Source of the DNA: Nitrosopumilaceae archaeon
Lineage (GTDB): Archaea > Thermoproteota > Nitrososphaeria > Nitrososphaerales > Nitrosopumilaceae
Length of the DNA: 64,000 bases
Direction of reading: 5' to 3'
Assembly (NCBI GenBank): GCA_965203465.1
Contig: CBDBCR010000002.1
Span: 99,876-163,875, forward strand
Shown here: positions 1,978 through 49,957 of the stretch, one piece after another
Numbering within the stretch: position 1 is the first letter of the stretch
Layout: every line of letters starts with the position of its first letter
The notes under the pieces: generated by a model
Databases searched by the model: none
What the model saw: the letters and a program-made list of their open reading frames with translations, nothing else
Told to the model about the DNA's origin: nothing
Translations under genes and position numbers: made by a program

Positions 1978-2148
1978 GCCGAACCTTGCAGGCGGGAGGA
2001 TTTAACTGATGTTCCGAATCGCGGCAGACGTGCGGACGGTTCCCGACCGCGGGCGCGCCCGGATCGGGGCGCAGGGGCGGACGGCGCCGGGCGCCGCGGG
2101 TTTGCGTGCCTGGATCGAGACCAGATTCGCCGGCCCGCCGGAGATATC

Positions 2149-2156
2149 TTAATAAA
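2149..2156 (+). promoter_or_regulatory. Archaeal TATA box for surface-protein paralog 1
   Basis: TTAATAAA in a GC-rich context, 22-29 bp upstream of ATG 2178 (leaderless spacing). Confidence 0.65.
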
Positions 2157-2177
2157 CTCGACCGGCTAGCGTCAAGC

Positions 2178-5100
2178 ATGCGCGGCGCGCTCTATGCTGT
2201 GGCGGCGATCTCGGCCTTGGCGGCAGCGGCCCTCGCGCTGCCGGGGGCCGAGGCGCACGAAGGCACCATCACCGTCTCGTCGGCGGCGATCGTGGGCCCG
2301 CACAGCATAGACGTCGTGTTCACCGACAGGATAGGGTACGTCCGCGACGGCACCGACGCCCAGCAAAACGCGCTCTACAGCAACGATCCGAGCGCGCACG
2401 CGCCGGCCATCCACAACCAGATGAAGGCTCTGTACAACAGGGCCGTCGGCGGAGACAGCTCGGCGTGCCCTGAATTGAAGACGATGGGCGCGAGGTACTC
2501 GCAGCTCTTTTACAGCAACGTCGTGCTCTCGCCTGGCGGCGCCAAGCAGATATACCTCGTAGAGCCGGTCAACATAACCACCGACCGCATACACCTCAAC
2601 CCGTGCGAGAACATCCCGAGGGGCGCGACGGCCACGCTGCACATAGCAGACGCCTCGTACGGGACACACCCAAACTCGGTGTACAACAGGCAGTTCAACT
2701 ATACGGAAAATCCGGGCGACTACTTCAGCTTTGGCTGGATCGGCACGCACGGCCACGACATCAACGCGGCGACGATCCACGTGATAGAAGGCCGCCCGCC
2801 GGTGGTGCTAGACAACCCGCTGGTCAACGTGAACACCGGGAGGGTGTTCTTCCACTTTGACGGCCCCGGCGCCAACGGATCCCTCACCGACCCGTCAAAG
2901 ATAACGATCGGCGGCGTCAACATGGCCGGCGCATACCACACCACCACGACGGGGGCAGTCTCGCTCACGCTGCACGGCGGACAGAGGGAGGCGCTCGCCG
3001 AGGTGCAGGATACGAAACTGACAAAGGGCGGCGCCCCGGTGCCCGGCAGCGTGGTGCTGGCAGCCGGCGCGTTCGCCCGCGCGAGCGGCCACGCCACCGA
3101 GGCCGTCACGCTCACGCCGCGGGTCATAAAGGACACCTCGCCGCCGGAGCTGTCGTTCCTCTTTTCGGAGTTCGACTTGGGCCACGGCCTCATCAAACTG
3201 AGGTTCGACGAGCCCGTCTCGACCTCGGCGGACTTGGGCAAGACGCGTATGTTCAACTCCGGCGCGTACATGACGCTGGCGGGCGCCTCGATACAGGAGA
3301 GCGCGCCGTACTCGGAGCGCATCACGATACAGCTCACCCCGTCGCAAAAGGCGACGATCATGGATCCGGGCTCGTTCCCGCCGCGCATACAGTACGGGTT
3401 CCGGGACCAGGCCAGCTTTCCCGACTCGCACGGGTTCTCCAACAGCCTGCGGAACATCAACATGTCGGGCGGCGCGTTCAGCGACGCGGCCGGAATCGCC
3501 GCCCGCGTCAACCACTACTTTGGAACGATCGCCAGCGTCCACCTCGACCACGGCTTCGAGGACAGGGTGGCGCCGCGCGTGCTAGCGCAGTCGCTGTACC
3601 TTGGCAACGACGGCGAGCTGAGGATAACGCTGGACGAGTACGTCAGGGCCCGCTCGGCCGACCTGACCGGCGTGAGCCTGTCCGGCTCGGGGCAGTCCGT
3701 GAGCCTATCGGCGGCCAGCTCGCTAAAGTCCAACGGCGAGGAACTCCGCATATCGCTCACCGAGGAGCAGAGGCAGTCGGCGATAGGCATGGGCGCGCGC
3801 GTGGACTTGGGCGTGCGGGCCGGCGCGCTCAACGATCTGGCCGGCAACCCGATCGCGCAGCTCTCCGGCGCGCAGCTCTCGCTGGTACGGGACGGGCAGG
3901 GCCCGTCGTTCGTGTCCGCTTCGCTGGACGACGAGACCGGCGTGCTGACCGTCACGTTCGACGAAAGGATAGACGTGACGCCCGCGTCCAGGGTGGATCA
4001 GTCCGGTATCGTCATCTGCGCCTCGGGGCGTTCGGACGCCGCCCGGCCCGCGGACGGCCCGCACGCAGACCCGACAGTGAACAGGCTCGGCATCTGCGCC
4101 TCGGGGCATTCGGACGCAGTCCGGCTCTCGGGGCAGACGGTCCTCGGCACCGCCGCCGACGCGGCGACCGTGCGGCTCACGCTCACCGAGGCGCAGAGGT
4201 CGGCCGTCTCCGCGTACAATTCGGGCTCGCTGGTGCTGGAGATGGACGCCGGGGCGGTGCGCGACACGTCGGGCAACCCGTCCCCGCAGCTCTCCGAGCA
4301 CCTCAACGCGTCGGCCGACAAGACGGCCCCCTCCGCGCAGTCGGCCTCGATAGACCTCGGCACGGGCGAGCTCTCGGTGACGTTCGACGAGACAGTCGAC
4401 GCCACGCCGGCGTACAGGGTGGACCTTTCGAGGGTGAAACTGCACGAGGCGGGTAGCGCTGCGATGCTGCCGCTCTCCGGCGCGCAGGTCTCCGAGGCCG
4501 ACAGCCCGGTTGTGCGCGTGACACTTACGGAAAGCCAGAGACAGCAGGCCGTCTCGTACGCCTCGGGGCTGGCCGTCACGCTCGAGGCCGGCGCCGTGCA
4601 CGACGCGGCGCGCAACATGGCGGCGAGAACCGCCGGCCTGTCCGTGTCCGTCTCGGCGCAGGACGAGACGGCGCCGTCGCTGTCCGCCGCCTCGCTCGAC
4701 GGCGGCACCGGGGTGCTGACGCTGCTCTTCGACGAGACGGCCGACGCGTCCGCGGCCGACACGTCGAAGATGTGGCTAAAGGACAGGGGCTCGGCAGACG
4801 CGGCGCGCCTATCCCTCTCGTCGGCCTCGTCGGTCTCTGCGCACGACGCAGAATCGATCGAAGTCACGCTCAGCGGCGCCCAGCGCCAGGCGGCGCTGGC
4901 GTTCGCGGACCTGCTGCTGGACTTGGACGCGTCCGCGGTGGCAGACACGTCGGGCAACGGGATCGAGGCCGCGCGGGACGCCGAGGTCGGAGACAGGCTG
5001 GACGCGGTGGCCCCCTCGCTGGTCTCTGCCTCGCTCTCGGGCCCCAAGGAGGTACGGGTGTTCTTTAGCGAGGATCTGCTGGATTCGTCGGTGCAGCAGT

Positions 5101-7661
5101 CCGACTTTGAGGTCAGCGCGCACACGGTAAGCTCTGTCTCGGAGAGCGCCGGCGCGGTCACTATCGGGCTGGCCGAACCCGTATCGCCCGACTCGGGCGA
5201 GACGGTGCGCGTGACCACGTCGGGCCCGGTCTCGGATCTGGCCGGCAACGAGCTGGCCGCCGGCGCGTACCACGACGTGCTCAACAACCTCGACTTTGCC
5301 GAGATCAGGGAGTTTACAGTCACGTCGAGCAACGAAAACAACGAGTACGCAAAGAGCGGCGACACGGTGACCCTAAAGTTCGCGGCAAAGGCGGCCATAG
5401 ACATCGACGGCAGCACCGTGACGGTCAACTCGCAGAGCTTGGATCTCACCCGGGTGGCCGCCGACGAGTTCACCGCGACGTACGCGGTGGCCGGCGGGGA
5501 CGGGCCGCTGGAGATAGAGGCGCAGATAAAGACGCCCGGGGACAACCCCACGGTGGCCGTGTTCGACGAGTCGGACCTGTGGTCGGTCGACTCCGAGGGA
5601 CAGGCGGGGCCCTCGCCCAACGTGACGCTGGACAACACGGCACCGCGATTCCTGTCCGGCTCGCTGGCCGGGTTCGCGTCCATATACGTCCACTATACCG
5701 AGGAGGTCGTGACCGAAAAATTCGACTATTCGGACATACAGATAAGCGGCGGCGGGACACAGCACGAGCCCTCCTCGGTGTCCGGCTCGGGCGAGTCCTC
5801 GCACATACTGGTCATGTGGCAGGCAAACTACGACGAGAGGGTGATAGGGCGCGAGATAGGCTTCACGGTGGGCCCGCGCGTCACGGATCTGGCGGGCAAC
5901 GACATAGCCAACCCCGCCAGGTACACCGTCCCTGCCGTCACCGACGCGGACGCGCTGAGCACCATACACCTGACCAGCGGGCCGTCGGGCCAGGCCCAGC
6001 TGTCCATGCCGCACGACACGCTGATCAGGAACGTGCACGCGGGGGCCGGCACCGTCCCCACGCTCAACGTCGAAAACTTCCAGAGGCCGGGCGTCTCGCA
6101 CCTTCCCGGAAACCCGTCCGATCACATCGCCTTCCCGCCCGGCGATCCGCTCGTGGTGCACACGCAGACCAGCTCGGTGACGTTCCCGCCCGACGTCCAC
6201 GTGGCTGGCTTCGACGAAGACTTGGGCCACACCATAAGGGCGCAGGTCTCGGAGCGCGAGCCCGACGCCGACTTTGTCGCGGCCCACCCGCACATAGACA
6301 CGGACAGCGCGCACATACTCGAATTCGGCCACCCCGACGTGGATCTGACTTTCAGCCACCCCGTAAAGGTGGACTTTCAGGCCGGCATCGGGCGCGCCGA
6401 CGCGGTCTTTTCGATAGACTCGGCGGGCAGCACGCTGCTGATAGCGGACTGCGGCAACGAGGTGTACGACGCGGGCGCCTCGCAGTCCGACCCGCGGGAG
6501 CGCGACGAGGCCGAGAGGCGCGCGGCCGAGCAGTACCTGCGCAGCGACCCGGCCGAGCTAAAGCCGGCGACGGTCGACGGCGGCGCGTGCGTGGAGCGGG
6601 AGCGCAGCGTGATATGGACGCTGCACTTTTCGTCGTTCGGCTCGGCCTCGCCTGTCCGGACCAGCTCCGAGTGCGACGACTGCACCGCGCCCACGCTCGG
6701 CCTCGGCGACGACGGGGCGCGGATAGTCTCGGGAGGGTTCTCGTACAACGGGCACGCCGCCGACGTGGGCTCTTTCTTTACGGACTATCCGCAGATAACC
6801 GCGCAGGTGGGAGTGGAAAACACCGCGGTGCTAAAGGTGTACGACGAGGGGGGGACCGACCAGGTGAGGCACGCGGCCATCGCGTTCGGCCTGCGCTCGG
6901 GCCAGTCCATCTCGGAGAGCAGGGCCGAGATAGCTTGGGACAGGGACCACGCCGGGACCGAGACCGTCACGGTGACCGATCCGCACAACGCCCTCGAGGG
7001 CTCGGCCGTGTCGGTGAGCGCTTCGGAGGCGCAGTGCAGGCCCGGCTCGACCGACCAGTGCCTCTCGGTCTCCATAACGCACTCTTTCCGGGCCCCGCTG
7101 GACTTTGACATGGTGGGCACCAACGTCTGGGACGCGGACCGCAACGGGCGCCAAAACTACTTCAACCACGGCATACACATAGAGGGCGAATCGCTCAACG
7201 AGATTCCGGGGATGCTGGTGGACGGCCTGAGGCTGTACCCCATCAGGGCAGGCTCTGACCACGTGACGGTCATGACAGACGGGGACGGCCAACTGTACCG
7301 GCTGGCGCCGGACGGGACGTACAAGCCGCTGACCAACCAGTCTGCCCTTCACATGAGCGCCGACGAGCTGTGGTGGGTGACGGCCAACGTGGACGACGAT
7401 CCGATGGGAGGGTACGACCGCTACGATCCGCGCTTTGCCGGCGCGCTGGCCCTCGAAGAGCTGGCGGCCCTCGAGGTGCTCGGGGAACTGACGGGCCACG
7501 CGCCGCTGTCGAACCCGGACTTTGGCGCGCCGGCGCCCCTGGTGTACCACGAGCAGACCTATTCGGACCGCTCGTCCGACGAGGCGCTGGGCGCCGCCAT
7601 TCTGGCCGAGCGGGAGCGCGCGGCGCTGCTGTACGAGGCGCTGTTCGGGGACGGGTGGTAG
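2178..7661 (+). CDS. Giant secreted surface protein, paralog 1 (signal peptide, variable His-tipped domain, Ig-like repeats, HFS motif, conserved C-terminal domain)
   Basis: Long ORF; signal MRGALYAVAAISALAAAALALPGAEA|H; recurring LD.GTG.L.V.FDE...GAV.D..GN repeats; CDDCTAPTLG domain. Confidence 0.9.
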   Translation: MRGALYAVAAISALAAAALALPGAEAHEGTITVSSAAIVGPHSIDVVFTDRIGYVRDGTDAQQNALYSNDPSAHAPAIHNQMKALYNRAVGGDSSACPELKTMGARYSQLFYSNVVLSPGGAKQIYLVEPVNITTDRIHLNPCENIPRGATATLHIADASYGTHPNSVYNRQFNYTENPGDYFSFGWIGTHGHDINAATIHVIEGRPPVVLDNPLVNVNTGRVFFHFDGPGANGSLTDPSKITIGGVNMAGAYHTTTTGAVSLTLHGGQREALAEVQDTKLTKGGAPVPGSVVLAAGAFARASGHATEAVTLTPRVIKDTSPPELSFLFSEFDLGHGLIKLRFDEPVSTSADLGKTRMFNSGAYMTLAGASIQESAPYSERITIQLTPSQKATIMDPGSFPPRIQYGFRDQASFPDSHGFSNSLRNINMSGGAFSDAAGIAARVNHYFGTIASVHLDHGFEDRVAPRVLAQSLYLGNDGELRITLDEYVRARSADLTGVSLSGSGQSVSLSAASSLKSNGEELRISLTEEQRQSAIGMGARVDLGVRAGALNDLAGNPIAQLSGAQLSLVRDGQGPSFVSASLDDETGVLTVTFDERIDVTPASRVDQSGIVICASGRSDAARPADGPHADPTVNRLGICASGHSDAVRLSGQTVLGTAADAATVRLTLTEAQRSAVSAYNSGSLVLEMDAGAVRDTSGNPSPQLSEHLNASADKTAPSAQSASIDLGTGELSVTFDETVDATPAYRVDLSRVKLHEAGSAAMLPLSGAQVSEADSPVVRVTLTESQRQQAVSYASGLAVTLEAGAVHDAARNMAARTAGLSVSVSAQDETAPSLSAASLDGGTGVLTLLFDETADASAADTSKMWLKDRGSADAARLSLSSASSVSAHDAESIEVTLSGAQRQAALAFADLLLDLDASAVADTSGNGIEAARDAEVGDRLDAVAPSLVSASLSGPKEVRVFFSEDLLDSSVQQSDFEVSAHTVSSVSESAGAVTIGLAEPVSPDSGETVRVTTSGPVSDLAGNELAAGAYHDVLNNLDFAEIREFTVTSSNENNEYAKSGDTVTLKFAAKAAIDIDGSTVTVNSQSLDLTRVAADEFTATYAVAGGDGPLEIEAQIKTPGDNPTVAVFDESDLWSVDSEGQAGPSPNVTLDNTAPRFLSGSLAGFASIYVHYTEEVVTEKFDYSDIQISGGGTQHEPSSVSGSGESSHILVMWQANYDERVIGREIGFTVGPRVTDLAGNDIANPARYTVPAVTDADALSTIHLTSGPSGQAQLSMPHDTLIRNVHAGAGTVPTLNVENFQRPGVSHLPGNPSDHIAFPPGDPLVVHTQTSSVTFPPDVHVAGFDEDLGHTIRAQVSEREPDADFVAAHPHIDTDSAHILEFGHPDVDLTFSHPVKVDFQAGIGRADAVFSIDSAGSTLLIADCGNEVYDAGASQSDPRERDEAERRAAEQYLRSDPAELKPATVDGGACVERERSVIWTLHFSSFGSASPVRTSSECDDCTAPTLGLGDDGARIVSGGFSYNGHAADVGSFFTDYPQITAQVGVENTAVLKVYDEGGTDQVRHAAIAFGLRSGQSISESRAEIAWDRDHAGTETVTVTDPHNALEGSAVSVSASEAQCRPGSTDQCLSVSITHSFRAPLDFDMVGTNVWDADRNGRQNYFNHGIHIEGESLNEIPGMLVDGLRLYPIRAGSDHVTVMTDGDGQLYRLAPDGTYKPLTNQSALHMSADELWWVTANVDDDPMGGYDRYDPRFAGALALEELAALEVLGELTGHAPLSNPDFGAPAPLVYHEQTYSDRSSDEALGAAILAERERAALLYEALFGDGW
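4013..4117 (+). repeat. 27-bp intragenic direct repeat (one mismatch), 78 bp apart
   Basis: CATCTGCGCCTCGGGGCGTTCGGACGC (4013-4039) and CATCTGCGCCTCGGGGCATTCGGACGC (4091-4117); encodes ICASG(R/H)SDA twice. Confidence 0.85.
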
Positions 7662-7701
7662 ATTCCATGGCTGAGCGGGCTTACGTACCAGGCGAGCGGC
7701 G

Positions 7702-10700
7702 ATGCTTGTGAAGGGCAGGATCGCGCAGGTCGTGCTCGTATCGCTGGTTCCGGCGTTGCTGGTCGGATACGGCGCGCTGGACGGGGGCTGGCAGGCCGTC
7801 CTGCCGGAGGCCGAGGCGCACGCGGGCACGATACACGTCACCCGGGCCGCGCTGACCGGCCCCAACACCATCGTGATCACGTACTCTGGCGTCGTCGGGG
7901 CCCCGGAGCAGACGAGGCCCACCGTGCAGTGCTTTTACGGCGGTTGCATCCGGACCGGCACCGAGACCGTCATCACCGACGCGGGCCGGTATTCGGACAT
8001 CGTGATCAATCCGGGGGGCTCGGTGGGGATCACCTCCCGCGACCGGCACGGGTACGGCGGCAACGAGCACCGCATCACCTTCGGCGGGAGCGGCGCCGCG
8101 CCGGACGCGACCGGCTCGCTAAGCGTGGCGTCGGGCGGCCCGTGGTCGAATTCGTACCACCGCCACACGCGCGCCGCGGCGACCGTCACGGTGCAGGACG
8201 GACAGGCGCCCGGGCTGGTACCCTCGAGCGTGTCGCTGGATCTGAACAACACCGGCGTCTTTTCGTTCAGAGCCAATGAGGATCTGCTAAAGTCGGCCAC
8301 CGACCCGTCTAAAATAACCATAGCCGGCGTGAGCCTCTCGAGCGCCACCGTACTGGACTTGGGCGGCGAGCGCGGCGTGTACGTGACCATCACCGAGGAT
8401 CAGAGGTCGCGCCTGGCCGCGCTGCAGGACGGCGGCCTGACGGCCGACTTTGCGGGGGCGGCGTTCGCAGACGCGCTGGGCAACAGGTCGGCCCCCGCTT
8501 CGGGCGTGCAGATATCCGTTACAAAGGACACGACGCCCCCTGCGCTGCTGCTAGGCGACTCGAGCCTGGACTTGGGCACGGGCGCCCTGAGGCTCGCGTT
8601 CAGCGAGTACGTGGACGTGTCCGAGGCGGACATGTCCGCGGTGCGGCTGCAGGATTCTTCGGGAGGCAGGGGACTGAGCCTCGCGGGCAGCGCCGTCCTT
8701 GAGGAGGACGACGGCTACGGCGTCTCGGTGCAGCTGACCGACCTGCAGAGGGCGCAGATAGCAAACCCCGACGCGTTCCCGCCCGGCGCCTCCCCCGGCG
8801 CCGTCCCGGGCGCGCAGCTGCCCGCCGTCGGCGATCTTCCCGAGGCGTACACGCTCACGTACCTAAAGGCGCCCTCGGCGGCGTTCAGCGATCTGGCCGG
8901 GATCCCGCTGTCCCGCGCGCCTGACGGCGCAAAACTGCCCACGACGGACGACTCCGCCCCGCCTTCGGTACTGGGCAGCCCGGCGCCCTCGCTGGCCCTC
9001 GACACCGGAATATTGCGCTTCGAGTTGGACGAGTACGTCCGCGCACGCGCGATCGATCTAGAAAACGTCGCCATAAAGGACAGGTTCGACGGGAGCGTCT
9101 CGCTGGAGAACGCCGAGCTCCGCTCGGACGGCAAGGCCGTGATGCTGACGCTGCCGGATCCGGACAGGGAGGCTGCCATCAACATGCAGACCGACCTGCT
9201 CTTGAGCGTGCCGGCCGGCGCGGTCGAGGACGTCTCGGGCAACGGCATCGCCGGATCGGAGACGGGCATCGAGGTGGCGCGGGACAGGACCGCCCCTTCG
9301 CTGGTCCGCGCGTCGCTGGCCGGCGACAAGCTGGCGCTGGTCTTCAGCGAGACGGTCGACGCCACCCCGTCGGGCCAGGTCGTCCTGTCGAAGATGTCGC
9401 TGCGCGCCCCGCAGACGGCCGAGGCCGGCGCGGTGCGCCTCTCGTCGGGGCAGGACGTAGCGACGGTCGAGACGTCGGCCGACGGCCCGCGCGTCGACAT
9501 CACGCTGACGGCCAGCCAGAGATCGGCGCTGGCAGCCGGCCAGAGCTCCACGCTGCTGCTCTCACTCGAGGCCGACGCGGTCCGAGACCTTTCGGGCAAC
9601 CCGGTGCAGGCCAACAGCGAGCTGCCGGTCGGCGCGTCGCTGGACCTGGCCGGGCCGGCGGCGCTTTCCGTGACGCTCGACACGGGCACCGGAACCATGT
9701 CGGTCACGTTCGACGAGATCATAGACGCCACGCCGGCATCCAAAGTGGACGCGTCAAAGTTTTCCATACGCGACTCGTCGGGCAGCGCCGACGCGGTGCG
9801 CACGGCCCTTGCGAACGCCAAAGTCTCCGGGTTCGATCGCGCTACGCTGGAGCTAAAGCTCACCGAGGCGCAGAGGCAGGCGGCCCTGTCGTACGGCGGC
9901 GCGCCGGTCTTGGACGTCGCCGCCGGCGCCGTCCGGGATCTGGCCGACAACCCGTCGTCCGCCTCCGCGGGGCTGCCCGTGGCGGTCTCCGGCGCGGACA
10001 CGTTCGTGCCCCAGCTGCTCTCGGCGTACCTGAACCGCGGAACCGGCAACTTGGAGATGCTGTTCGGCGAGACGGTGGACGTATCCGAGATTGACCTTGC
10101 AAAGCTGAGGATACAAGAGATCGCGGTGGTGGTAGAGGCGCCCGAAAACACGGGCACCGCAGTGTGCGCCTTGGATCTAAACAACATATACCGGTGGCTC
10201 ACCGGCCCGAATGCGGGCCAGACGTGCACCCCGCCGACCGCGCCGCCGCCCGTGCCGCAGGCGTTCGTGCAGCTAAAGACGGACACGACTTCGGCCTCGG
10301 TACTGACCACGTCTGACGGCGCCTCGGTCGCCGTGGCCCTGACCGAGGAGCAACTGGGGTGGGTCGAGGCGTTCGAGCGCGCAGCGCAGCTTGACATAGA
10401 GGCGGGCGCCGTAAAGGACACGTCGGCCAACCCGATCCAGGCCCGCTCCGACGTCCCGCTCTCCGTGCAGGCCGACACCGTCCCGCCGGCGCTGGTCTCG
10501 GCGGCGATCACAGGCCCCAATTCGGTCCGCGTGCAGTTCAGCGAGGATCTGCTGAATTCGTCGGTGGACGCCTCCGACTTTGCGGTGCGCGGCCACGCGA
10601 TCGCCGGCGTCGAGGAGACAAAGGGCACGGTGGACATCGAGCTGTCCACGCGCATCGACAACACGTCGGGCCAGACCGTGCGCGTCTCGGTGACCGGCAG

Positions 10701-13089
10701 CGTCTCGGACACCGAGGACAACGTGCTCGACGGGGCCGTAGCACAAATCCACGCGTACGCCCCCAACGATCTGGTCTTTGCCGACGCGGCAGAGTTCACC
10801 GTGTCTTCGAGCAACCCCAACCCCATGTACGCGCGCGCCGGCGAGACGGTCACGCTGACCTTCAAAGCGGACGTGGACATACTGCCCGCAAACGAGACGG
10901 GCGTGCTGTTCAACCTGAATGACGCCTCGTCGATATCGAGCGTCACGGCGCGCGGGTTCACCGCCACGTACGTCGTGCAGCAGTCCGACCGCGACGGCCC
11001 GCTGGACCTGGTGGTCGCGGTGGAGACGACCGACGCGATATCGACCTTTACGGCGGCCGACATTACGTCGGGCGGCAACGTGACGGTGGACACCACGCCG
11101 CCCCGGTACATGTCCGCGACGCTGGCCGGGATGCAGTCCATACACGTCCACTATTCGGAGCCGGTGCAGACCTCGGCGACCGACTATACGGGCATCGGCA
11201 TAGGGTGCCCCGACTGCACGCCGCAGCCCGCCTCTTCGGCGTCCAACCCCGGCCCGTCCTCGCACGTGCTGGTGTCGTGGGCCACGCAAGTCCCCGGCAC
11301 GGAGCGCTCCAACGTGGAATTCACGATCAGCTCGTCGGTGACGGATCTTGCAGGCAACGGCCTGTCCAACCACGGCGTCAAGACCATGCCGCCGCCCGAG
11401 AACCTCGAGGCGGTCAGCAGGCTGCAGCTGGACACCACGGACAGCGGCGTCTCGGGCGTGGCGCTGCCGCACGACACGCTGGTGCGCACGGTCGTGGCCA
11501 CGCCGGGGACGGTCCCGGTCATCGACGTGTCGGGGTTCAAGGAGCCGGGCTCGGTGCACGGCGGCGTGGCCGGCGCCGGCGGCAACAGGGTAGAGTTCCC
11601 GCCGGGCAGGGAGCTCATGGTGGAGACGGACATGGCGACCGTGACGTTCCAGCCGATGGTGCAGGCCGGCGGCTTCCCCAACCGGGACGGCTCTGACGCG
11701 GGCAGCACCATAACAGTCGACGTCTCGCAAAAGGATCCAGACTCGGAGTTCACGGAACTACACCCGCACGTGGATCCGGAGTTTTCGCTGATACTGGAGT
11801 TCGGCAGGCCCGACGTGGATCTTGCCTTCAGCGCGCCGGTCCAAGTCGCGCTAAAGAGCGACATACTGCCCAGCTCCACCGTGTTCACGATAAACGCGGC
11901 AGGCTCCACGCGCGAGGTGCTAGAGTGCGGCTCGGACGTGCGGGACTCTGCCACCGCGCTGGACTTCATAGTCTCGTCGGTCGCGCCGCTCGGATCCGCG
12001 ACGGTCGACGGCGGCGCATGCGTCGACAAGGACTTCAACGTCATCTGGACTATGCACTTTTCGGCGTTCGGCGTCTCGCTGCCGTCCCCGTCCTCGTCGG
12101 CAAGATCCAGCTGCGACGACTGCACGCCGCCCACCCTGGGCCGCGACGAGGGCGGCGATCTGGTAGTCGCCGGCGGGTTCACCTACAACGGCCGCGAGGC
12201 CAACGTGGAGACGTTCTTCACGGCGTACCCGCGCATAGAGACGCAGGTGGGCTCGCCCAACGTGGCCGTCGTAAAGATATACGAGAACGGCGGGCCCGAC
12301 AATATACGGCACGCCTCGCTTGCCTTCGGGCTGCGCTCCGGCGAGGTGATATCGGAGAGCACCGCTGCCATCGAGTGGAACCGTGACCACGCCGGCGCCG
12401 AGTCGGTCACGCTCTTCGATCCGCACAACGCCATCGACGGCGCCAGCTTGGGCGTGGACGCCTCGGAGACAGAGTGCGCGGCCGGCTCTTCTCTTCAGTG
12501 CCTGCGGCTGGAGTTCCGCCACACGTTCCGGGCCCCGCTAGAGTACGACATCGTGGGCACCAACGTCTGGGACGCCGACCGCAACGCATGGCAGAACTAC
12601 TTCAACCACGGCATACACATCGAGGGCGAATCGCTCAACGAGATACCGGGGATGCTGGTCGACGGCATGAGGCTGTACCCCATCAGGGCCGGCTCGGACC
12701 ACGTGACGGTCATGTCAGACGGGGACGGCCAGCTGTACAGGCTGGCCCCGGACGGCCAGTACCGGCCGCTGACGAACTCGTCGGCGCTGTACAGGAACGC
12801 CGACGAGTCCATATGGCTGCAGGCAAACGGGATGGAGCCGATGGGCGGCTACGACCGGCACGATCCGCGCTTTGCAGGCGAGCTGGCCTCGGAGGAGCTG
12901 GCGGCCCTCGAGGTGCTCGCCTCTCTTACCCGCGACGCCCCGCTGGAAAACCCAGGGTTCGGCGCGCCCGCGCCCCTGGTGTACCACGAGCAGACCTATT
13001 CGGACCGCTCGTCCGACGAGGCGCTGGGCGAGGCGCTGCTGGCCGAGCAGGAGCGCGCGGCGCTGCTCTACGAGGTTCTGTTCGGGTAG
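7702..13089 (+). CDS. Giant secreted surface protein, paralog 2
   Basis: 1795-aa ORF; hydrophobic N-terminus ending LPEAEA|H; same architecture as paralogs 1 and 3. Confidence 0.9.
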   Translation: MLVKGRIAQVVLVSLVPALLVGYGALDGGWQAVLPEAEAHAGTIHVTRAALTGPNTIVITYSGVVGAPEQTRPTVQCFYGGCIRTGTETVITDAGRYSDIVINPGGSVGITSRDRHGYGGNEHRITFGGSGAAPDATGSLSVASGGPWSNSYHRHTRAAATVTVQDGQAPGLVPSSVSLDLNNTGVFSFRANEDLLKSATDPSKITIAGVSLSSATVLDLGGERGVYVTITEDQRSRLAALQDGGLTADFAGAAFADALGNRSAPASGVQISVTKDTTPPALLLGDSSLDLGTGALRLAFSEYVDVSEADMSAVRLQDSSGGRGLSLAGSAVLEEDDGYGVSVQLTDLQRAQIANPDAFPPGASPGAVPGAQLPAVGDLPEAYTLTYLKAPSAAFSDLAGIPLSRAPDGAKLPTTDDSAPPSVLGSPAPSLALDTGILRFELDEYVRARAIDLENVAIKDRFDGSVSLENAELRSDGKAVMLTLPDPDREAAINMQTDLLLSVPAGAVEDVSGNGIAGSETGIEVARDRTAPSLVRASLAGDKLALVFSETVDATPSGQVVLSKMSLRAPQTAEAGAVRLSSGQDVATVETSADGPRVDITLTASQRSALAAGQSSTLLLSLEADAVRDLSGNPVQANSELPVGASLDLAGPAALSVTLDTGTGTMSVTFDEIIDATPASKVDASKFSIRDSSGSADAVRTALANAKVSGFDRATLELKLTEAQRQAALSYGGAPVLDVAAGAVRDLADNPSSASAGLPVAVSGADTFVPQLLSAYLNRGTGNLEMLFGETVDVSEIDLAKLRIQEIAVVVEAPENTGTAVCALDLNNIYRWLTGPNAGQTCTPPTAPPPVPQAFVQLKTDTTSASVLTTSDGASVAVALTEEQLGWVEAFERAAQLDIEAGAVKDTSANPIQARSDVPLSVQADTVPPALVSAAITGPNSVRVQFSEDLLNSSVDASDFAVRGHAIAGVEETKGTVDIELSTRIDNTSGQTVRVSVTGSVSDTEDNVLDGAVAQIHAYAPNDLVFADAAEFTVSSSNPNPMYARAGETVTLTFKADVDILPANETGVLFNLNDASSISSVTARGFTATYVVQQSDRDGPLDLVVAVETTDAISTFTAADITSGGNVTVDTTPPRYMSATLAGMQSIHVHYSEPVQTSATDYTGIGIGCPDCTPQPASSASNPGPSSHVLVSWATQVPGTERSNVEFTISSSVTDLAGNGLSNHGVKTMPPPENLEAVSRLQLDTTDSGVSGVALPHDTLVRTVVATPGTVPVIDVSGFKEPGSVHGGVAGAGGNRVEFPPGRELMVETDMATVTFQPMVQAGGFPNRDGSDAGSTITVDVSQKDPDSEFTELHPHVDPEFSLILEFGRPDVDLAFSAPVQVALKSDILPSSTVFTINAAGSTREVLECGSDVRDSATALDFIVSSVAPLGSATVDGGACVDKDFNVIWTMHFSAFGVSLPSPSSSARSSCDDCTPPTLGRDEGGDLVVAGGFTYNGREANVETFFTAYPRIETQVGSPNVAVVKIYENGGPDNIRHASLAFGLRSGEVISESTAAIEWNRDHAGAESVTLFDPHNAIDGASLGVDASETECAAGSSLQCLRLEFRHTFRAPLEYDIVGTNVWDADRNAWQNYFNHGIHIEGESLNEIPGMLVDGMRLYPIRAGSDHVTVMSDGDGQLYRLAPDGQYRPLTNSSALYRNADESIWLQANGMEPMGGYDRHDPRFAGELASEELAALEVLASLTRDAPLENPGFGAPAPLVYHEQTYSDRSSDEALGEALLAEQERAALLYEVLFG

Positions 13090-13336
13090 GGGCCGGGCGC
13101 TGACGCGATCCGCCTGCCGGGCCGGTCTTGGGACGCGAACCGATCCGCGCGCGGCGCTTTTCCGCGCCCCGGCGGTCTGGACTGGCAGGTTGCGCCCGCC
13201 GGACGCGATCTGACGGCTTTTTTGGCCGACTGGACGGATGTCTTGCCGAACGCGGATGTACCGCAAAAGCGTGCGCTCGCGGGCGGGCGGCCGCGCCCGA
13301 GGCGCGCGCGGGCGTACGGTTTGGGCGACACATGTC

Positions 13337-13367
13337 TTATATACCAAAAGCTGCGGGGGGGGGGGGG
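13337..13367 (+). promoter_or_regulatory. TATA box (TTATATA, 13337-13343) followed by a G13 homopolymer (13355-13367) running into the probable GTG start
   Basis: Sequence cTTATATAccaaaagctgc-G13-tg; the last G is the first base of the in-frame GTG at 13367. Confidence 0.7.
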
Positions 13368-16300
13368 TGGCAGAACGGTGCGAATCGGCGAGGCGCGGGC
13401 TCTTCCGCGCGGACAAGCTGCTCGCGCTGGCGGCCCCGGCGGTGCTCGCGCTGGCAGTATGCGGCGCCCTCGACATGTCCGGCGCGTGGCCTGATCTGCT
13501 GCCCGAGGCCGAGGCTCACGCGGGCAAGATCCACATCACCAACGCCGTGCTGACCAACCACAACACGATACTGGTAACGTATTCGGGCTCCATCGCGCCG
13601 CCCTCTTCCAGGCAGGTCCCGCAGTCGCAGTGCTACGGCGCGTTCGGCTGCTCGTTCACCGGCTACAAGACGGTCTGGAACGTGGCCTCGCGGTATTCGG
13701 ACGTGTCGATGAACCCGGGCGGGGCCATGGGCATCGCGAGAGTCTCGTACAGCGCGTACAACGCGCACTTTATACACCTGTCCGGCAGCGTGCCGTCTCC
13801 GGACGCGACCGGCTCGCTCAGCGTGGCCTCGTCGGGCTCCGTGAGTTGGACCAACTCGCAGCACAGCCACACGCGCGACGCGGCGACGGTCACCGTCCAC
13901 GACGGGCAGGGCCCGGGCCTGGCGTCTTCGGGCGCGTCCCTGGATCTGAACGCGGGCATCTTTTCGTTCACGGCCAACGAGGATCTGCAAAAGTCGGCCA
14001 CCGACCCGTCAAAAATAACCATAGCCGGCGTGAACCTCTCTAGCGCCACCGCGCTGGACTTGGGCGGCGAGCGTAGCGTATCGATCGTCATCACCGAGGA
14101 TCAGAGGTCGCGCCTGGCCGCGCTGCAGGACGGCGCCGGCCTGACGGCCGACTTTGCCGGGGCGGCGCTTGCAGACGCGGCGGGCAACCGGTCGGGCCCC
14201 GCTTCGGGCGTGCAGATATCCCTGACAAAAGACACGACGCCCCCGGCGCTGTCGCTGGCCTCTTCCAGCCTGGACTTGGGCACCGGCACGATGAAGCTCC
14301 TGTTCACAGAGTACGTTGACGTGTCCGAGGCGGACATGTCGGCGGTGCGGCTACAAAACCCCTCGGGAGGCGCGGGGTTCAGCCTGGCCGGCAGCGCCGT
14401 CCTGGAGGAGGACGACGGCTACGGCGTCTCGGTGCAGCTGACCGACCTGCAGCGGGCGCAGATAATCAACCCGGCCGCGTTCCCGGCCGGGGCGCCCCCC
14501 GAGACGGTTCCAGATCTGATGCTGCCCGTCATCAGGGAGCCCCCGCCGGGCGCCGCGCTGACGCACCTGAAAGTGGACCCCGCGGCGTTCCGCGATCTGG
14601 CCGGCATCGCGCTCTCGCGGGCCGTCGAAGGGCAGATTCCGGCGACCCCCGACGCGACGGCGCCTTCGGTACTGGGCAGCCCGGCGCCCTCGCTGGCCCT
14701 GGACACGGGGGTGCTGCGCTTCGAGTTCGACGAGTACGTCAACGCCCGCGCGGTCGATTTCGACGACATGGCGATAAAGGACAGGTTCGACGGGAGCGTC
14801 TCGCTGGAGAACGCCGGCGTCCGCTCGGACGGCAAGACCGTGATACTGACGCTGCCCGACCGGGACAGGGAGGCTGCCATCAACATGCAGACCGACCTGC
14901 TCTTGCACGCAAAAACCGGCGCGGTCAAGGACGTCTCGGGCAACGGCATCGCCGAATCGGATACGGGCATCGAGGTGGCGCGGGACAGGACCGCCCCGTC
15001 GCTGGTCCGCGCATCGCTGGATCCGAGCAGCGGCAATCTGGCGCTGGTCTTCAGCGAGACAGTCGACGCCACCCCGTCGGGCCAGGTCGTCCTGTCGAAG
15101 ATGTCGCTGCGCGCCCCGCAGACGGCCGAGGCCGACGCGGTGCGCCTTTCGTCGGGGCAGGACAGGGCGACGGTGACCACCGCCGCCGACGGCCCGCGGG
15201 TCGACATCACGCTGACGGCCAGCCAGAGATCGGCGCTGGCAGCCGGCCAGAGCGCCACGCTGCTGCTCTCGCTCGAAGCCGACGCCGTCCGGGATCTTTC
15301 GAACAACCCTGTCCAGGCCAACAGCGAGCTGCCGGTCGGCACGTCGCTGGATCTGGGAGGGCCGACGGCGCTTTCAGTCTCCCTCGAGACGGGCACCGGC
15401 ACCATGACGGTCACGTTCGACGAGACCGTCGATGCCACGCCAGCATCGAAGGTCGACACGTCAAAGTTCTCCATCCGCGACTCGTCGGGCGGCGCCGACG
15501 CCGTGCGCACCGCGCTGACGTCGGCCAAGGTCTCCGAGTTTGACCGCCTCTCGCTGGAGCTAAAGCTCACCGAGGCGCAGAGGCAGGCGGCCCTGTCGTA
15601 CGGCGGCGCGCCGTTCCTGGACATCGCCGCCGGCGCCGTCCGCGACTCGGCGGACAACCCGTCGTCGGCTACCAGCGACATGACCGTCAACGTAACCGGA
15701 ACGGACACGCTGGTGCCCGGGTTGCTCTCGGCGTACCTGAACTGGGGGACCGGCAACCTCGAGATGCTGTTCGGCGAGACGGTGGACGTATCCGAGATAG
15801 ACCTTGCAAAGCTGAGGATACAAGAGATCGCGGTGGTCGTAGAGGCGCCCGAAAACACGGGCCCGGGCGTGTGCACGCCGGATCTGCAAAACATCTACCG
15901 CTGGGCAGGCGGCCCCAACGACGGCCAGCTGTGCACCCCGCCGACCGCGCCGCCGCCCGTGCCGCAGGCGTTCGTGCAGCTAAAGACGGACACGACTTCG
16001 GCCTCGGTGCTGACCACCGCGGACGGCGCCTCGGCCACCGTGGCCCTGACCGAGGAGCAGCTGGGGTGGGTCGAGGCGTTCGAGCGCGCAGCGCAGCTGG
16101 ACATCGAAGCGGGCGCCGTAAAGGACACGTCGGCCAACCCGATCCAGGCCCGCTCGGACATCCCGCTCTCCGTCCAAGCTGACACCGTCCCGCCGGCGCT
16201 GGTCTCGGCGGCGATCACCGGCCCCGATTCGGTACGCGTGCAGTTCAGCGAGGATCTGCTGAATTCGTCGGTGGACGCCTCCGACTTTGCGGTGCGCGGC

Positions 16301-18805
16301 CACGCGATCGCCGGCGTCGAGGAGACAAAGGGCACGGTGGACATCGAGCTGTCCACGCGCATCGACAACACGTCGGGCCAGACCGTGCGCGTCTCGGTGA
16401 CGGGCAGCGTCTCGGACACCGAGGACAACGTGCTCGACGGGGCCGTCGCACAAATTTACATAGATGCCCCCAACGACCTTGTCTTTGCCGACGTGGCCGA
16501 GTTCACCGTGTCTTCGAGCAACCCCAACCCCGTGTACGCGCGCGCCGGCGATACCGTAACGCTGACCTTCAGGGCCGACGTGGACATCCTGCCCGCAAAC
16601 GAGACGGGCGTGCTGTTCAACCTAAACGACGCCGCGTCGATCTCGAACGTCACGGCGCGCGGGTTCACGGCCACTTACGTCGTGCAGCAGTCCGACCGCG
16701 ACGGCCCGCTCGACCTGGTGGTCGCGGTGGAGACAACCGACGCGATATCTGCCTTTACGGCGGCCGACATTACGTCGGGCGGCAACGTGACGGTGGACAC
16801 CACGCCGCCCCGGTACCTGTCGGCCACGCTAGCCGGGATGCAGTCCATACACGTCCACTATTCGGAGCCGGTAAAGACGTCCGCCTCCGACTATACGGGC
16901 ATCGGCATCGGGTGCCCCGACTGCACGCCGCAGCCCGCCTCGTCCGCGTCCAACCCGGGACCGTCCTCACACGTGCTGGTGTCGTGGGCCACGGAGGTGC
17001 CGGACACAGAGCGCTCCGACGTGGACTTTACGATCAGCTCGTCGGTGACGGATCTTGCGGGCAACGCACTGTCCAACTCGGGCGCAAAGACCATGCCGCC
17101 GCCCGAGAACCTCGAGGCGGTCAGCCGGCTGCAGCTGGACACGACGGACAGCGGCGTCTCGGGCGTGGCGCTGCCGCACGACACGCTGGTGCGCACGGTC
17201 GTGGCCACGCCGGGGACGGTCCCGGTCATAGACGTGTCGGGGTTCAAGGAGCCGGGCTCGGTGCACGGCGGCGTGGCCGGCGCCGGAGGCAACCGCGTCC
17301 AATTCCCGTCTGGCAGCGAGCTGACCGTCGATACGGACATGGCCACCGTGACGTTCCAGCCGATGGTGCAGGCGGGCGGCTTCCCCAACCAGGACGGCGC
17401 GGACGCGGGCAGCACCATAACCGTCGACGTCTCGCAAAAGGATCCAGACTCGGAGTTCACGGAACTGCACCCGCACGTGGATCCGGAGTTTTCGCTGATA
17501 CTGGAGTTCGGCAGGCCCGACGTTGACCTTGCCTTCAGCGCGCCGGTGCAGGTCGCGCTAAAGAGCGACATACTGCCCAGCTCCACCGTGTTCACGATAA
17601 ACGCGGCAGGCTCCACGCGCGAGGTGCTAGAGTGCGGCGACGGCGTCGAGGATTCGGCGACCGCGCTGGACTTCATAACATCGTCTGTCGCTCCGTTGGG
17701 GTCTGCCACGGTAGACGGCGGCGCATGCGTCGACAAGGACTTCAACGTAATCTGGACTATGCACTTTTCGGCGTTCGGCGTGTCTCTGCCCAACCCGTCC
17801 TCGTCGGGAGGCTCCACGTGCGACGACTGCACGCCGCCCACCTTGGGCAGGAACGAGGCCGGCGATCTGGTAGTCGCCGGCGGGTTCACCTACAACGGCC
17901 GCGAGGTCAACGTGGAGACGTTCTTCACGGCGTACCCGCGCATAGAGACGCAGGTGGGCTCGCCCAACGTGGCCGTCGTAAAGATATACGAAAACGGCGG
18001 GCCCGACAACGTGCGGCACGCCTCGCTTGCCTTCGGGCTGCGCTCCGGCGAGGTGATATCGGAGAGCACCGCTGCCATCGAGTGGAACCGTGACCACGCC
18101 GGCGCCGAGTCGGTCACGCTCTTCGATCCGCACAACGCCATCGACGGCGCCAGCTTGGGCGTGGACGCCTCGGAGACAGAGTGCGCGGCCGGCTCTTCTC
18201 TTCAGTGCCTGCGGCTGGAGTTCCGCCACACGTTCCGGGCCCCGCTAGAGTACGACATCGTGGGCACCAACGTCTGGGACGCCGACCGCAACGCATGGCA
18301 GAACTACTTCAACCACGGCATACACATCGAGGGCGAATCGCTCAACGAGATACCGGGGATGCTGGTCGACGGCATGAGGCTGTACCCCATCAGGGCCGGC
18401 TCGGACCACGTGACGGTCATGTCAGACGGGGACGGCCAGCTGTACAGGCTGGCCCCGGACGGCCAGTACCGGCCGCTGACGAACTCGTCGGCCCTGTACA
18501 GGACCGCCGACGAGTCCATATGGCTGCAGGCAAACGGGATGGAGCCGATGGGCGGCTACGACCGGCACGATCCGCGCTTTGCCGGCGAGCTGGCCTCGGA
18601 GGAGCTGGCGGCCCTTGAGGTGCTCGCCTCTCTTACCCGCGACGCCCCGCTGGAAAACCCAGGGTTCGGCGCGCCCGCGCCCCTGGTGTACCACGAGCAG
18701 ACCTATTCGGACCGCTCGTCCGACGAGGCGCTGGGCGAGGCGCTGCTGGCCGAGCAGGAGCGCGCGGCGCTGCTCTACGAGGCCATGTTCGCAAACAGGC
18801 GCTAG
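13367..18805 (+). CDS. Giant secreted surface protein, paralog 3
   Basis: ORF 13238-18805, probable start GTG 13367 given TATA spacing; signal ends LPEAEA|H; long stretches near-identical to paralog 2 at an offset of 5707 bp. Confidence 0.88.
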   Translation: MAERCESARRGLFRADKLLALAAPAVLALAVCGALDMSGAWPDLLPEAEAHAGKIHITNAVLTNHNTILVTYSGSIAPPSSRQVPQSQCYGAFGCSFTGYKTVWNVASRYSDVSMNPGGAMGIARVSYSAYNAHFIHLSGSVPSPDATGSLSVASSGSVSWTNSQHSHTRDAATVTVHDGQGPGLASSGASLDLNAGIFSFTANEDLQKSATDPSKITIAGVNLSSATALDLGGERSVSIVITEDQRSRLAALQDGAGLTADFAGAALADAAGNRSGPASGVQISLTKDTTPPALSLASSSLDLGTGTMKLLFTEYVDVSEADMSAVRLQNPSGGAGFSLAGSAVLEEDDGYGVSVQLTDLQRAQIINPAAFPAGAPPETVPDLMLPVIREPPPGAALTHLKVDPAAFRDLAGIALSRAVEGQIPATPDATAPSVLGSPAPSLALDTGVLRFEFDEYVNARAVDFDDMAIKDRFDGSVSLENAGVRSDGKTVILTLPDRDREAAINMQTDLLLHAKTGAVKDVSGNGIAESDTGIEVARDRTAPSLVRASLDPSSGNLALVFSETVDATPSGQVVLSKMSLRAPQTAEADAVRLSSGQDRATVTTAADGPRVDITLTASQRSALAAGQSATLLLSLEADAVRDLSNNPVQANSELPVGTSLDLGGPTALSVSLETGTGTMTVTFDETVDATPASKVDTSKFSIRDSSGGADAVRTALTSAKVSEFDRLSLELKLTEAQRQAALSYGGAPFLDIAAGAVRDSADNPSSATSDMTVNVTGTDTLVPGLLSAYLNWGTGNLEMLFGETVDVSEIDLAKLRIQEIAVVVEAPENTGPGVCTPDLQNIYRWAGGPNDGQLCTPPTAPPPVPQAFVQLKTDTTSASVLTTADGASATVALTEEQLGWVEAFERAAQLDIEAGAVKDTSANPIQARSDIPLSVQADTVPPALVSAAITGPDSVRVQFSEDLLNSSVDASDFAVRGHAIAGVEETKGTVDIELSTRIDNTSGQTVRVSVTGSVSDTEDNVLDGAVAQIYIDAPNDLVFADVAEFTVSSSNPNPVYARAGDTVTLTFRADVDILPANETGVLFNLNDAASISNVTARGFTATYVVQQSDRDGPLDLVVAVETTDAISAFTAADITSGGNVTVDTTPPRYLSATLAGMQSIHVHYSEPVKTSASDYTGIGIGCPDCTPQPASSASNPGPSSHVLVSWATEVPDTERSDVDFTISSSVTDLAGNALSNSGAKTMPPPENLEAVSRLQLDTTDSGVSGVALPHDTLVRTVVATPGTVPVIDVSGFKEPGSVHGGVAGAGGNRVQFPSGSELTVDTDMATVTFQPMVQAGGFPNQDGADAGSTITVDVSQKDPDSEFTELHPHVDPEFSLILEFGRPDVDLAFSAPVQVALKSDILPSSTVFTINAAGSTREVLECGDGVEDSATALDFITSSVAPLGSATVDGGACVDKDFNVIWTMHFSAFGVSLPNPSSSGGSTCDDCTPPTLGRNEAGDLVVAGGFTYNGREVNVETFFTAYPRIETQVGSPNVAVVKIYENGGPDNVRHASLAFGLRSGEVISESTAAIEWNRDHAGAESVTLFDPHNAIDGASLGVDASETECAAGSSLQCLRLEFRHTFRAPLEYDIVGTNVWDADRNAWQNYFNHGIHIEGESLNEIPGMLVDGMRLYPIRAGSDHVTVMSDGDGQLYRLAPDGQYRPLTNSSALYRTADESIWLQANGMEPMGGYDRHDPRFAGELASEELAALEVLASLTRDAPLENPGFGAPAPLVYHEQTYSDRSSDEALGEALLAEQERAALLYEAMFANRR

Positions 18806-19743: not shown

Positions 19744-19788
19744 CGCGGCGGGGGCGCCCGTTGTCTTAATGTGCTTTTCCGGAATCTC

Positions 19789-20260
19789 CAGTTAACCACA
19801 AAGTTCCGCCGGCGGGCGGATAATTTCCGATCGCGAATCGGCCAAAATGGGCAGAACGGCGGCAATCTCCAAAAGGCGTGCTCGTCCGGCTCCGTTCCGG
19901 GCGCTGCCCGAGCCGGCCGGCGCGCAGCGTCCCCGCCCGTCCAGGGCCGTCTTGTCGGATCAGCCGGGCGGCCCGGGTCCGGACTACAGAAAGAACGGCA
20001 TCGCCGCCAGCGCCGAGCGCAGCGGGATTGCAGGCTCGGGCCCCTGCGCGGCGCAGGCCGGGCGGCGGAGCGCGTCTGTAACACGTTGCACAGCATCATC
20101 GTCAGCGCCACGTACAGCACCCTCGGGCCGTGGAGGCTGCTGCGCGTCTTTGCCCGGATGTCTTCTATGACTGTATCCCGTCGGGCCTGTCCCGGGCGGT
20201 TCCTTTTCATGCAGGCTGAGGCGCCGTCCAAGACGCCCGTTTTCGGATCTTTCGGCGGGT
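19789..20260 (-). mobile_element. Degraded IS4/ISH3-like transposase remnant
   Basis: Minus-strand 20171-20076 encodes VIEDIRAKTRSSLHGPRVLYVALTMMLCNVLQ, resembling ISH3-family transposase C-termini; CAGTTAACCACAAAG at 19789 resembles an ISH3-type terminal repeat (from memory). Confidence 0.45.
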
Positions 20261-49956: not shown

Positions 49957-49957
49957 A

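Follow-up and report, generated by a model that had tools for sequence, protein, structure and literature searches.

Organization of the tandem genes

The window analyzed here is a 64,000-nucleotide stretch from a Nitrosopumilaceae archaeon in which three long open reading frames (ORFs) run head to tail on the plus strand, each with a product of about 1,800 amino acids (aa). The products share a domain with a His-Phe-Ser (HFS) motif near its end and a constant C-terminal tail module behind it, and this work examines the HFS domain as a candidate self-cleaving joint between the two parts of the protein. The three genes are as follows.

Gene 1: 2106-7661, plus strand; product P0001, 1,851 aa; signal peptide, N-terminal head, immunoglobulin (Ig)-like repeat stalk (Big_5), HFS domain, and tail module
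Gene 2: 7702-13089, plus strand; product P0002, 1,795 aa; paralog with the layout of gene 1
Gene 3: 13238-18805, plus strand; product P0003, at most 1,855 aa, with an uncertain true start; close copy of gene 2

The gene 1 ORF starts at a GTG at 2106, and its likely true start is the ATG at 2178 (M25), as in P0004, a database protein of 1,827 aa that is 98% identical to the gene 1 product. All three products are acidic (pI 4.4-4.65), and their cysteines occur in pairs. Kyte-Doolittle profiles (19-residue window) show a single hydrophobic peak per protein, which is N-terminal and signal peptide-like. The hydropathy maximum in the last 400 aa of the three products is 1.08-1.34, and therefore there is no C-terminal membrane helix. 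This result bears out the original prediction, which saw no C-terminal transmembrane anchor, and its estimate of a head and stalk of ~1450 aa agrees with an N-terminal piece of about 1,455-1,480 aa without the signal peptide. Pfam and NCBIfam scans of the whole proteins identified the Big_5 Ig-like domain and weak repeats only.

Identity between genes 2 and 3 is 97.5% (tail), 95% (HFS domain), 86% (stalk), and 68% (head), and between genes 1 and 2 it is 71% (tail), 45% (HFS domain), and 33% (head). Identity falls from tail to head, and thus the constant end has been kept or homogenized while the heads diverged. The gradient between the gene 2 and gene 3 sequences suggests either a recent duplication after which the heads diversified or gene conversion at the 3' ends.

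Fold of the HFS domain

A recent preprint describes MAIN (Microbial Autoproteolysis INducing) domains as GAIN-B-like sandwiches with a conserved HX(S/T) motif that occur in bacteria and archaea (bioRxiv 10.64898/2026.05.12.724683, Brogan and Rudner, May 2026). The HFS domains of the window and the features at their ends lie as follows.

HFS domain, gene 1: 5946-6647, plus strand; about aa 1281-1514; predicted ZU5/GAIN-like (MAIN-type) beta-sandwich, from an AlphaFold2 model and fold searches
HFS domain, gene 2: 11377-12078, plus strand; about aa 1226-1459; same domain
HFS domain, gene 3: 17084-17785, plus strand; about aa 1283-1516; same domain
HFS motif, gene 1: 6624-6632, plus strand; His1507-Phe1508-Ser1509, in the predicted turn that joins the last two strands; the predicted scissile bond is Phe-Ser
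HFS codons, gene 2: 12055-12063, plus strand; the His is H1452 of P0002
HFS codons, gene 3: 17762-17770, plus strand; the His is H1509 of P0003
Ser/Pro-rich linker SPVRTSSE, gene 1: 6648-6671, plus strand; low confidence, with a predicted local distance difference test (pLDDT) of 58-63 at model residues 241-263

The sequence around the His codon at 6624 in gene 1 reads ERERSVIWTLHFSSFGSA (longer context, SVIWTLHFSSFG), and the sequences at 12055 in gene 2 and 17762 in gene 3 read DKDFNVIWTMHFSAFGVS (longer context, NVIWTMHFSAFG). VIWTxHFSxFG is thus found in three of three proteins at the His codons that were predicted, with a correction to the spacing: GGACV and VIWT are separated by five residues, not four. 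A Ser-rich linker and a CDDCTxPTLG sequence had also been predicted behind the motif, and they are present in genes 1-3 as a Ser/Pro-rich linker of 10-16 residues followed by CDDCT(A/P)PTLG; the part behind the motif proves to be a module of about 325-329 aa and not a small domain.

Whether the region before the motif has a ZU5/GAIN-like fold was set beforehand as the question for structure prediction and structural searches, and the answer was a ZU5/GAIN-like fold. AlphaFold2 was run on aa 1278-1540 of gene 1 with 37 aligned sequences, and the model (pLDDT 88; predicted template modeling score, 0.85) is a beta-sandwich with a helical insert, in which the HFS domain spans ~235 aa including the motif. 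The motif is predicted at model residues 230-232, between the last two strands (225-231 and 233-237), as in GAIN domains. The 10 best Foldseek rows against PDB are nine ankyrin ZU5 chains and one GAIN domain (8oek, rank 9), and the top match has an E value of 2.7e-3 and a probability of 0.98. VIA-align, a structural search of 48,161 chains that is independent of Foldseek, gave ankyrin ZU5 domains at Z 7.5 (6m3q_E; 140 aligned residues, 4.2 Å), 7.1 (3f59_A; 124 of 149 residues, 3.6 Å), and 6.3 for a third entry. These were accompanied by the GAIN domains of CD97 (Z 5.8; 135 aligned residues, 4.2 Å), CD97, BAI3, and Gpr126 (5.2 each), GPR97 (4.8), and CELSR1 (4.7), and by an axonemal protein (5.4), the UNC5b ZU5 (5.3), and the FIIND domains of CARD8 (4.4) and NLRP1 (3.7 and 3.5). 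A second structural look placed ZU5 in the top nine rows at Z 6.5-7.9 (3kbu_D, Z 7.9; 130 aligned residues, 3.5 Å), followed by four GAIN entries. Nup98, one of the comparators named in the original prediction, is a weak structural match, with Z 2.9 only (2q5x_A) versus 6.3-7.9 for ZU5. In the ESM Atlas only unnamed clusters were matched; the closest named cluster is a eukaryotic ZU5 cluster (0.87), which serves as a lead only. The fold assignment carries weight because the top of both lists consists almost entirely of the sandwich group known for self-cleavage at H-x-S/T, and because the alignments reach the end of the domain, where the motif sits. The model and these searches indicate that the HFS domain very probably belongs to the ZU5/GAIN fold class.

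Conservation of the motif

The C-terminal 522 aa of the gene 1 product, used as a query, retrieved 42 proteins of 1,099-3,062 aa. They have the C-terminal 500-570 aa in common and differ in their heads, which include CopC, ANF_receptor/Peripla_BP_6 with EPTP, a reprolysin-like peptidase, NHL propellers, and Big_5. H-[F/Y/L]-[S/T] is present in 43 of the 45 proteins P0001-P0045 (24 HFS, 17 HFT, 1 HYS, and 1 HLS), and the exceptions are P0022 (RLA) and P0045 (GFS). The domain copies in the source genome, G000, keep the motif in 17 of 18 cases (15 of 16 with the tail module and both copies with another anchor).

A profile of the HFS domain alone (A4; 19 sequences, 246 positions) extended the comparison to distant relatives. 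The only invariant positions of its alignment are G, C, C, W, T, and H, with F and the final G near-invariant. The two Cys, C1449 and C1495 in gene 1, are predicted to form a disulfide. The profile was searched against 1.84 billion representative sequences and matched 442 proteins at E ≤ 0.001. Among the matches listed (150 of 442), 136 are new, and 130 of these are assessable at the motif; the six left out are the fragments P0069, P0101, and P0137 and the proteins P0070, P0090, and P0122, which align as repeats and only to the profile's N-terminal part. H-x-[S/T] stands at the aligned site in 126 of the 130 (HLT, 59; HFT, 36; HFS, 24; HMT, 6; HLS, 1), and it is lost in P0055, P0120, P0126, and P0166. 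HLT is the classical GAIN form. At the level of sequence, a fixed His, an interchangeable Ser or Thr, and a variable large hydrophobic residue between them is the signature of a putative base and nucleophile, and its recurrence in these alignments exceeds what chance would produce.

Some of the proteins matched by the profile are bacterial and carry PG_binding_1 after the domain. The profile reached P0159 at E 1.8e-8, and a search from P0159 reached wall-binding proteins of Patescibacteria and, in Clostridia, Negativicutes, and Syntrophomonadaceae, proteins anchored by SLH. Of the 65 proteins from the P0159 search, 60 align to the archaeal profile with W-T-x-H-F-[S/T], at 20-49 bits. One of them, P0246 (Metallophos, 5_nucleotid_C, and SLH), is matched by the P0159 domain at 2.3e-10. 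The bacterial protein P0225 (939 aa, SLH) has two HFT domains: aa 278-479 are of a long, Cys-containing type related to the archaeal domain, and aa 628-705 are of a compact type that is matched by Pfam ZU5 and has its HFT at 746. P0225 carries both, and thus two flavors of motif-bearing sandwich coexist in one protein.

The main rival to self-cleavage is that the fold is ZU5/GAIN-like but the proteins stay single chains, with HFS as a structural turn. Ankyrin ZU5 domains as the best structural matches and the uncleaved GAIN 8oek among the Foldseek matches are what this explanation would expect, and members without the motif are still maintained (P0022 with RLA, the LSL paralog in the source genome, P0055, P0120, P0126, and P0166). 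However, the His is kept, only Ser or Thr stands two residues on, and the middle residue is F, L, M, or Y (126/130), a pattern that speaks for a base and nucleophile and not for packing. In addition, cleavage was shown for bacterial domains that carry this motif in the corresponding turn, according to the MAIN preprint (bioRxiv 10.64898/2026.05.12.724683). An uncleaved domain is therefore unlikely, and we favor the view that the HFS domain probably cleaves itself between Phe and Ser, by analogy with its characterized relatives.

The C-terminal tail module

The tail modules that follow the HFS domain and linker are placed as follows.

Tail module, gene 1: 6672-7661, plus strand; aa 1523-1851; CDDCTAPTLG
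Tail module, gene 2: 12112-13089, plus strand; aa 1471-1795
Tail module, gene 3: 17819-18805, plus strand; aa 1528-1855

In the model of the module (pLDDT 79.6), residues 15-183 form a V-set Ig-like sandwich, which is accompanied by a smaller beta part and a pair of long amphipathic helices. The best structural match of the sandwich has Z 8.5 and is generic, and the module matches no Pfam family at E ≤ 10 and no NCBIfam family at E ≤ 1. The module was found in 29 of 301 sampled genomes of the phylum, all of them in the archaeon's own family (28 of 43 with the source genome set aside, against 0 of 257 outside the family). Matches to the HFS domain profile are likewise confined to this family, in 18 of the 301 genomes (17 of 43 and 0 of 257). 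The tail stands at the extreme C terminus of 16 proteins in the source genome, and among the family proteins the HFS domain sits directly before the C-terminal module, behind very different heads.

Relatives with low GC content separate the two modules. In Nitrosarchaeum and other Thaumarchaeota metagenome-assembled genomes, the tail module closes secreted proteins of 490-580 aa in which the HFS domain is absent, and in low-GC relatives the HFS domain precedes another C-terminal region. Therefore, the modules are independent and were combined in the present lineage. At four low-GC loci (L039, L040, L001, and L002), a small head is fused directly to a CxxDC tail of 313-342 aa with extra CxxC pairs near its end.

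Other C-terminal partners of the HFS domain were also found. Two giant proteins of the source genome (C3:708945-719480, minus strand, and C3:783384-790370, minus strand) combine the HFS domain with CFI-box-CTERM (NF041770, 65 bits against a cut-off of 40). Both end in a linker rich in poly-Gly or Pro and Ala, a small Cys-containing domain, the CFI-box-CTERM match, and hydrophobic segments. NF041770 was not matched in the tail modules of the window proteins (NCBIfam, E ≤ 1). In the 3,512-aa paralog of this pair, the HFS domain lies mid-protein, with about 2,000 aa of repeats behind it; the same protein contains, as a second sandwich, a compact ZU5-like one that lacks the catalytic residues (GRFASLSPVGIG). 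In bacterial relatives, HFS-type domains stand before PG_binding_1 or SLH.

These arrangements slightly favor a role of the tail module as an envelope anchor. It is rather unlikely that cleavage occurs while the tail serves instead in export or sorting, in oligomerization, or as a lectin-like ligand-binding module, such that the cut matures or releases the protein. In favor of such a role, the tail has no membrane helix and belongs to no known anchor family, its first 170 aa form a V-set Ig-like sandwich of generic type, with sugar-binding, Siglec-like adhesin domains among the best Foldseek rows, and the 490-580-aa secreted proteins of the low-GC relatives end in it without an HFS domain. However, it is always extreme C-terminal behind unrelated heads, in 16 proteins in one genome and in 28 of 43 sampled genomes of the family, in the manner of known modules that bind the wall or envelope, and the same HFS domain precedes the recognized anchors CFI-box-CTERM, SLH, and PG_binding_1 in paralogs and bacterial relatives.

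The conserved CxDC sequence also raises the idea that a separate protease or sorting enzyme recognizes WTxHFSxFG...CxDC and cuts near the motif. In archaea and bacteria, C-terminal sorting signals commonly have dedicated processing enzymes, and CxDCxxPTLG is as conserved as HFS. Nevertheless, a folded module of 325 aa far exceeds known sorting signals, the HFS domain is also found before anchors without CxDC, and its fold and motif are of the self-cleaving kind. A dedicated enzyme is thus very improbable.

A probable self-cleaving joint before a constant tail

Taken together, the fold, the motif, and the position of the domain favor the reading of genes 1-3 as secreted, acidic Ig-repeat surface proteins with a MAIN-type self-cleaving joint before a constant tail module (probability of about 0.6). 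In the proposed mechanism, His1507 would activate Ser1509 after export and folding, and Ser1509 would attack the Phe1508 carbonyl. The N-to-O acyl shift would give an ester whose hydrolysis by water cuts the chain between Phe and Ser, with SSFGSASPVR or SAFGVSLPSPSSSAR as the predicted new N termini. The new C-terminal piece would open with the last beta-strand (SSFGSA), which would stay hydrogen-bonded inside the sandwich; therefore, the ~1,450-aa head and stalk would be held noncovalently on the tail piece. This piece would comprise the strand, the Ser-rich linker, and the CxDC module of ~325 aa, and would keep the protein attached to the cell envelope with no need for a membrane helix. A pulling force or unfolding could extract the strand and release the head. 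The two pieces of GAIN and MAIN domains stay bound after cleavage, and therefore shedding would need force or unfolding and would not be automatic. Given cleavage, the analogy gives better than even odds that the archaeal pieces also remain associated. A further step, that the CxDC tail is an undescribed envelope or S-layer docking module that forms a force-releasable display system with the HFS domain as its breakpoint, is tentative and somewhat doubtful.

The ester could in principle be attacked by a different nucleophile in place of water, for example a glycan or lipid of the envelope, leaving the head covalently attached. Ester intermediates serve transfer in Hedgehog-type processing, so the chemistry alone would permit it, and a glycosyltransferase gene adjoins gene 3. 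However, transfer is without known precedent in GAIN, ZU5, and, in the accessible text of the preprint, MAIN domains, where YfkN yields two free fragments; such an outcome is exceedingly improbable. Hydrolysis remains the favored resolution.

Several points weigh against a self-cleaving joint with an anchoring tail. No PDB chain was matched by Foldseek at E ≤ 0.001, and all Z scores of the domain are moderate, below 8, a range in which the tool warns that a match can reflect a common arrangement. Pfam ZU5 (PF00791), GPS, and Nup98 were not matched even at E ≤ 10 in window positions 5937-6725 or in the gene 2 domain. Profile A4 found nothing among the PDB sequences at E ≤ 10, and a PDB-chain sequence search with P0001 found nothing at E ≤ 1; therefore, no solved S-layer protein, GAIN, or ZU5 is a detectable sequence relative. 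Ankyrin ZU5 domains, the best structural matches, are not known to cleave. The strand predicted to remain after cleavage is short, with 5 residues in the model. Bacteria have both a compact and a long, Cys-containing HF[S/T] flavor; the archaeal domain is of the long flavor, and the bench-cleaved one may be of either. The link to YfkN is indirect (A4 to P0159 to P0246), and P0246 scores only 22 bits with the archaeal profile. The bench evidence for cleavage in the accessible text of the preprint is bacterial, with no archaeal member among it. Finally, the anchoring role of the tail is suggested by its terminal position and modularity and by these only.

Expansion and genomic context

The source genome is 2.26 Mb in four contigs, 96.9% complete, and 65% GC. 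It encodes an archaeal AmoA and therefore belongs to an ammonia-oxidizing archaeon. Archaeal genes within the window include those for eRF1, a CofH-like radical SAM protein, and an F420-type luciferase-like monooxygenase. Two more family members lie at and before the start of the window.

Fourth family member, C-terminal end (tail module): window 1-885, plus strand; 2,694-aa ORF at G000:C2:92676-100757; motif HFT
Fifth family member: G000:C2:86965-92502; 1,846-aa ORF before the fourth member

Therefore, five such genes stand in tandem across the window start. Genome-wide, 16 ORFs end in the HFS domain and tail module (1,804-9,068 aa, stop to stop); together they total 58,469 aa, or 7.8% of the genome, and their motif is HFS in 13, HFT in 2, and lost (LSL) in 1. 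Three of the members, measured stop to stop, are C3:58001-85204 (minus strand, 9,068 aa), C1:648397-670716 (plus strand, 7,440 aa), and C3:403434-421838 (minus strand, 6,135 aa). A related genome, G036, has a 25,697-aa ORF with both the HFS domain and the tail module (C1, near 1047035).

In the LSL paralog (G000:C3:574225-579813, minus strand), VWALSLVSFG replaces WTxHFSxFG, so that the His and the nucleophile are lost while the tail module is kept. The protein resembles the database proteins P0022 (RLA) and P0023 (HLS). From its sequence it is likely an uncleavable variant and would be a natural control.

The genes flanking the tandem array encode a small DM13-domain protein just before gene 1 (1537-2001, minus strand) and a GT4-family glycosyltransferase directly after gene 3 on the opposite strand (18802-19791, minus strand). 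Two adjacent SNF2-family helicase genes (50716-52581 and 53093-54997, both plus strand) lie beside the eRF1 gene (48670-49980, minus strand). GC content is 63-73% across most of the window. Positions 36001-40000 have a GC fraction of 0.49-0.58 versus 0.63-0.73 elsewhere, and may be an island or foreign DNA. Rfam detected no RNA family across the window. The possibility that the three proteins are the S-layer protein itself was considered, and no support was found for it. A literature search on giant surface proteins in high-GC Thaumarchaeota turned up only general sponge-symbiont genomics.

Significance

The mechanism is not a novel one; its prediction for bacterial surface proteins dates from 2012 and its demonstration in bacteria from 2026. 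The superfamily was united in 2012 and bacterial cleavage shown in 2026; therefore, the kind of domain is known, and the window holds its putative archaeal members. The present analysis extends MAIN-type domains to ammonia-oxidizing archaea, whose surface biology is little known, and points to the HFS domain as a connector used routinely to join giant, variable heads to a tail module specific to the family. If both cleavage and anchoring are true, the proteins would represent a new form of archaeal envelope retention without a membrane helix or lipid anchor, and the arrangement would explain the display and release of about 8% of the genome's coding capacity. If the display system is as proposed, an ammonia oxidizer would present 16 giant adhesin-like proteins in this way, with two more on CFI-box anchors, and this possibly host- or particle-associated lineage would have the controlled release of giant adhesins among its major traits.

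Comparison with known self-cleaving systems

The SEA/SEAL domains of mucins and RsgI anti-sigma factors resemble the proposed joint in their beta-sheet self-cleavage, their bound fragments that are separable by force, and their occurrence in cell-surface proteins. They differ in fold and motif and are absent among the structural matches; their cleavage motif is of the G-SVVV type, cut after the Gly. Nup98 also has a beta-sandwich whose C-terminal end carries an HFS motif cut between Phe and Ser, but the structural match is weak (Z 2.9), Pfam gives no match, and the nuclear-pore context belongs to Nup98.

GAIN/GPS domains of adhesion GPCRs and polycystin-1 share the fold (Z 4.6-5.8 for CD97, BAI3, Gpr126, CELSR1, and BAI2), an H-hydrophobic-S/T sequence at the last beta-turn, which is HLT in many relatives, and a large N-terminal adhesive ectodomain. 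The archaeal domain has no evident helical GAIN-A subdomain, no CxC directly before the His, and no Pfam GPS match, and no seven-transmembrane or other hydrophobic segment follows it, leaving no evident signaling output. The ZU5 domains of ankyrin, UNC5, and PIDD and the related FIIND are the best structural matches (ankyrin, Z 6.3-7.9; UNC5b, 5.3; CARD8, 4.4). HFS is the cleavage motif reported for PIDD-type ZU5, and FIIND is cut between Phe and Ser of SFS. In contrast to these proteins, the archaeal ones are extracellular and not cytosolic, have no Pfam ZU5 match, and carry no UPA or death domain after the sandwich. Zhang et al. 2012 (PMC3482391) united ZU5, GPS, and Nup98 in one autopeptidase superfamily and described related domains in large bacterial surface proteins.

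The MAIN family was gathered by PSI-BLAST from the domain of Bacillus subtilis YfkN, as the preprint relates (bioRxiv 10.64898/2026.05.12.724683). The cut in YfkN was mapped by Edman degradation between the F and S of HFS; cleavage was abolished in S1346A and restored by Thr substitution, the fragments co-purified, and the ectodomain was releasable by SDS or heat (bioRxiv 10.64898/2026.05.12.724683). Compared with the MAIN domains as described there, the archaeal domain is longer (~235 aa) and is marked by two invariant, paired Cys residues and by the signature WT-x-HFS-x-FG, and a family-less module of ~325 aa replaces the sortase signal, SLH, or wall-binding domain. The usual MAIN layout is a signal peptide, adhesion or enzyme domains, MAIN, and an anchor (bioRxiv 10.64898/2026.05.12.724683); the products of genes 1-3 have the signal peptide-like N terminus and the Ig repeats, followed after the HFS domain by a module without a known anchor family. 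P0246, which also has SLH, carries the Metallophos and 5'-nucleotidase enzyme set of YfkN. The archaeal domains, as modeled, share with the MAIN domains of the preprint a GAIN-B/ZU5-like sandwich, an HX(S/T) motif that is often HFS in the turn before the last strand, and a place in very large proteins.

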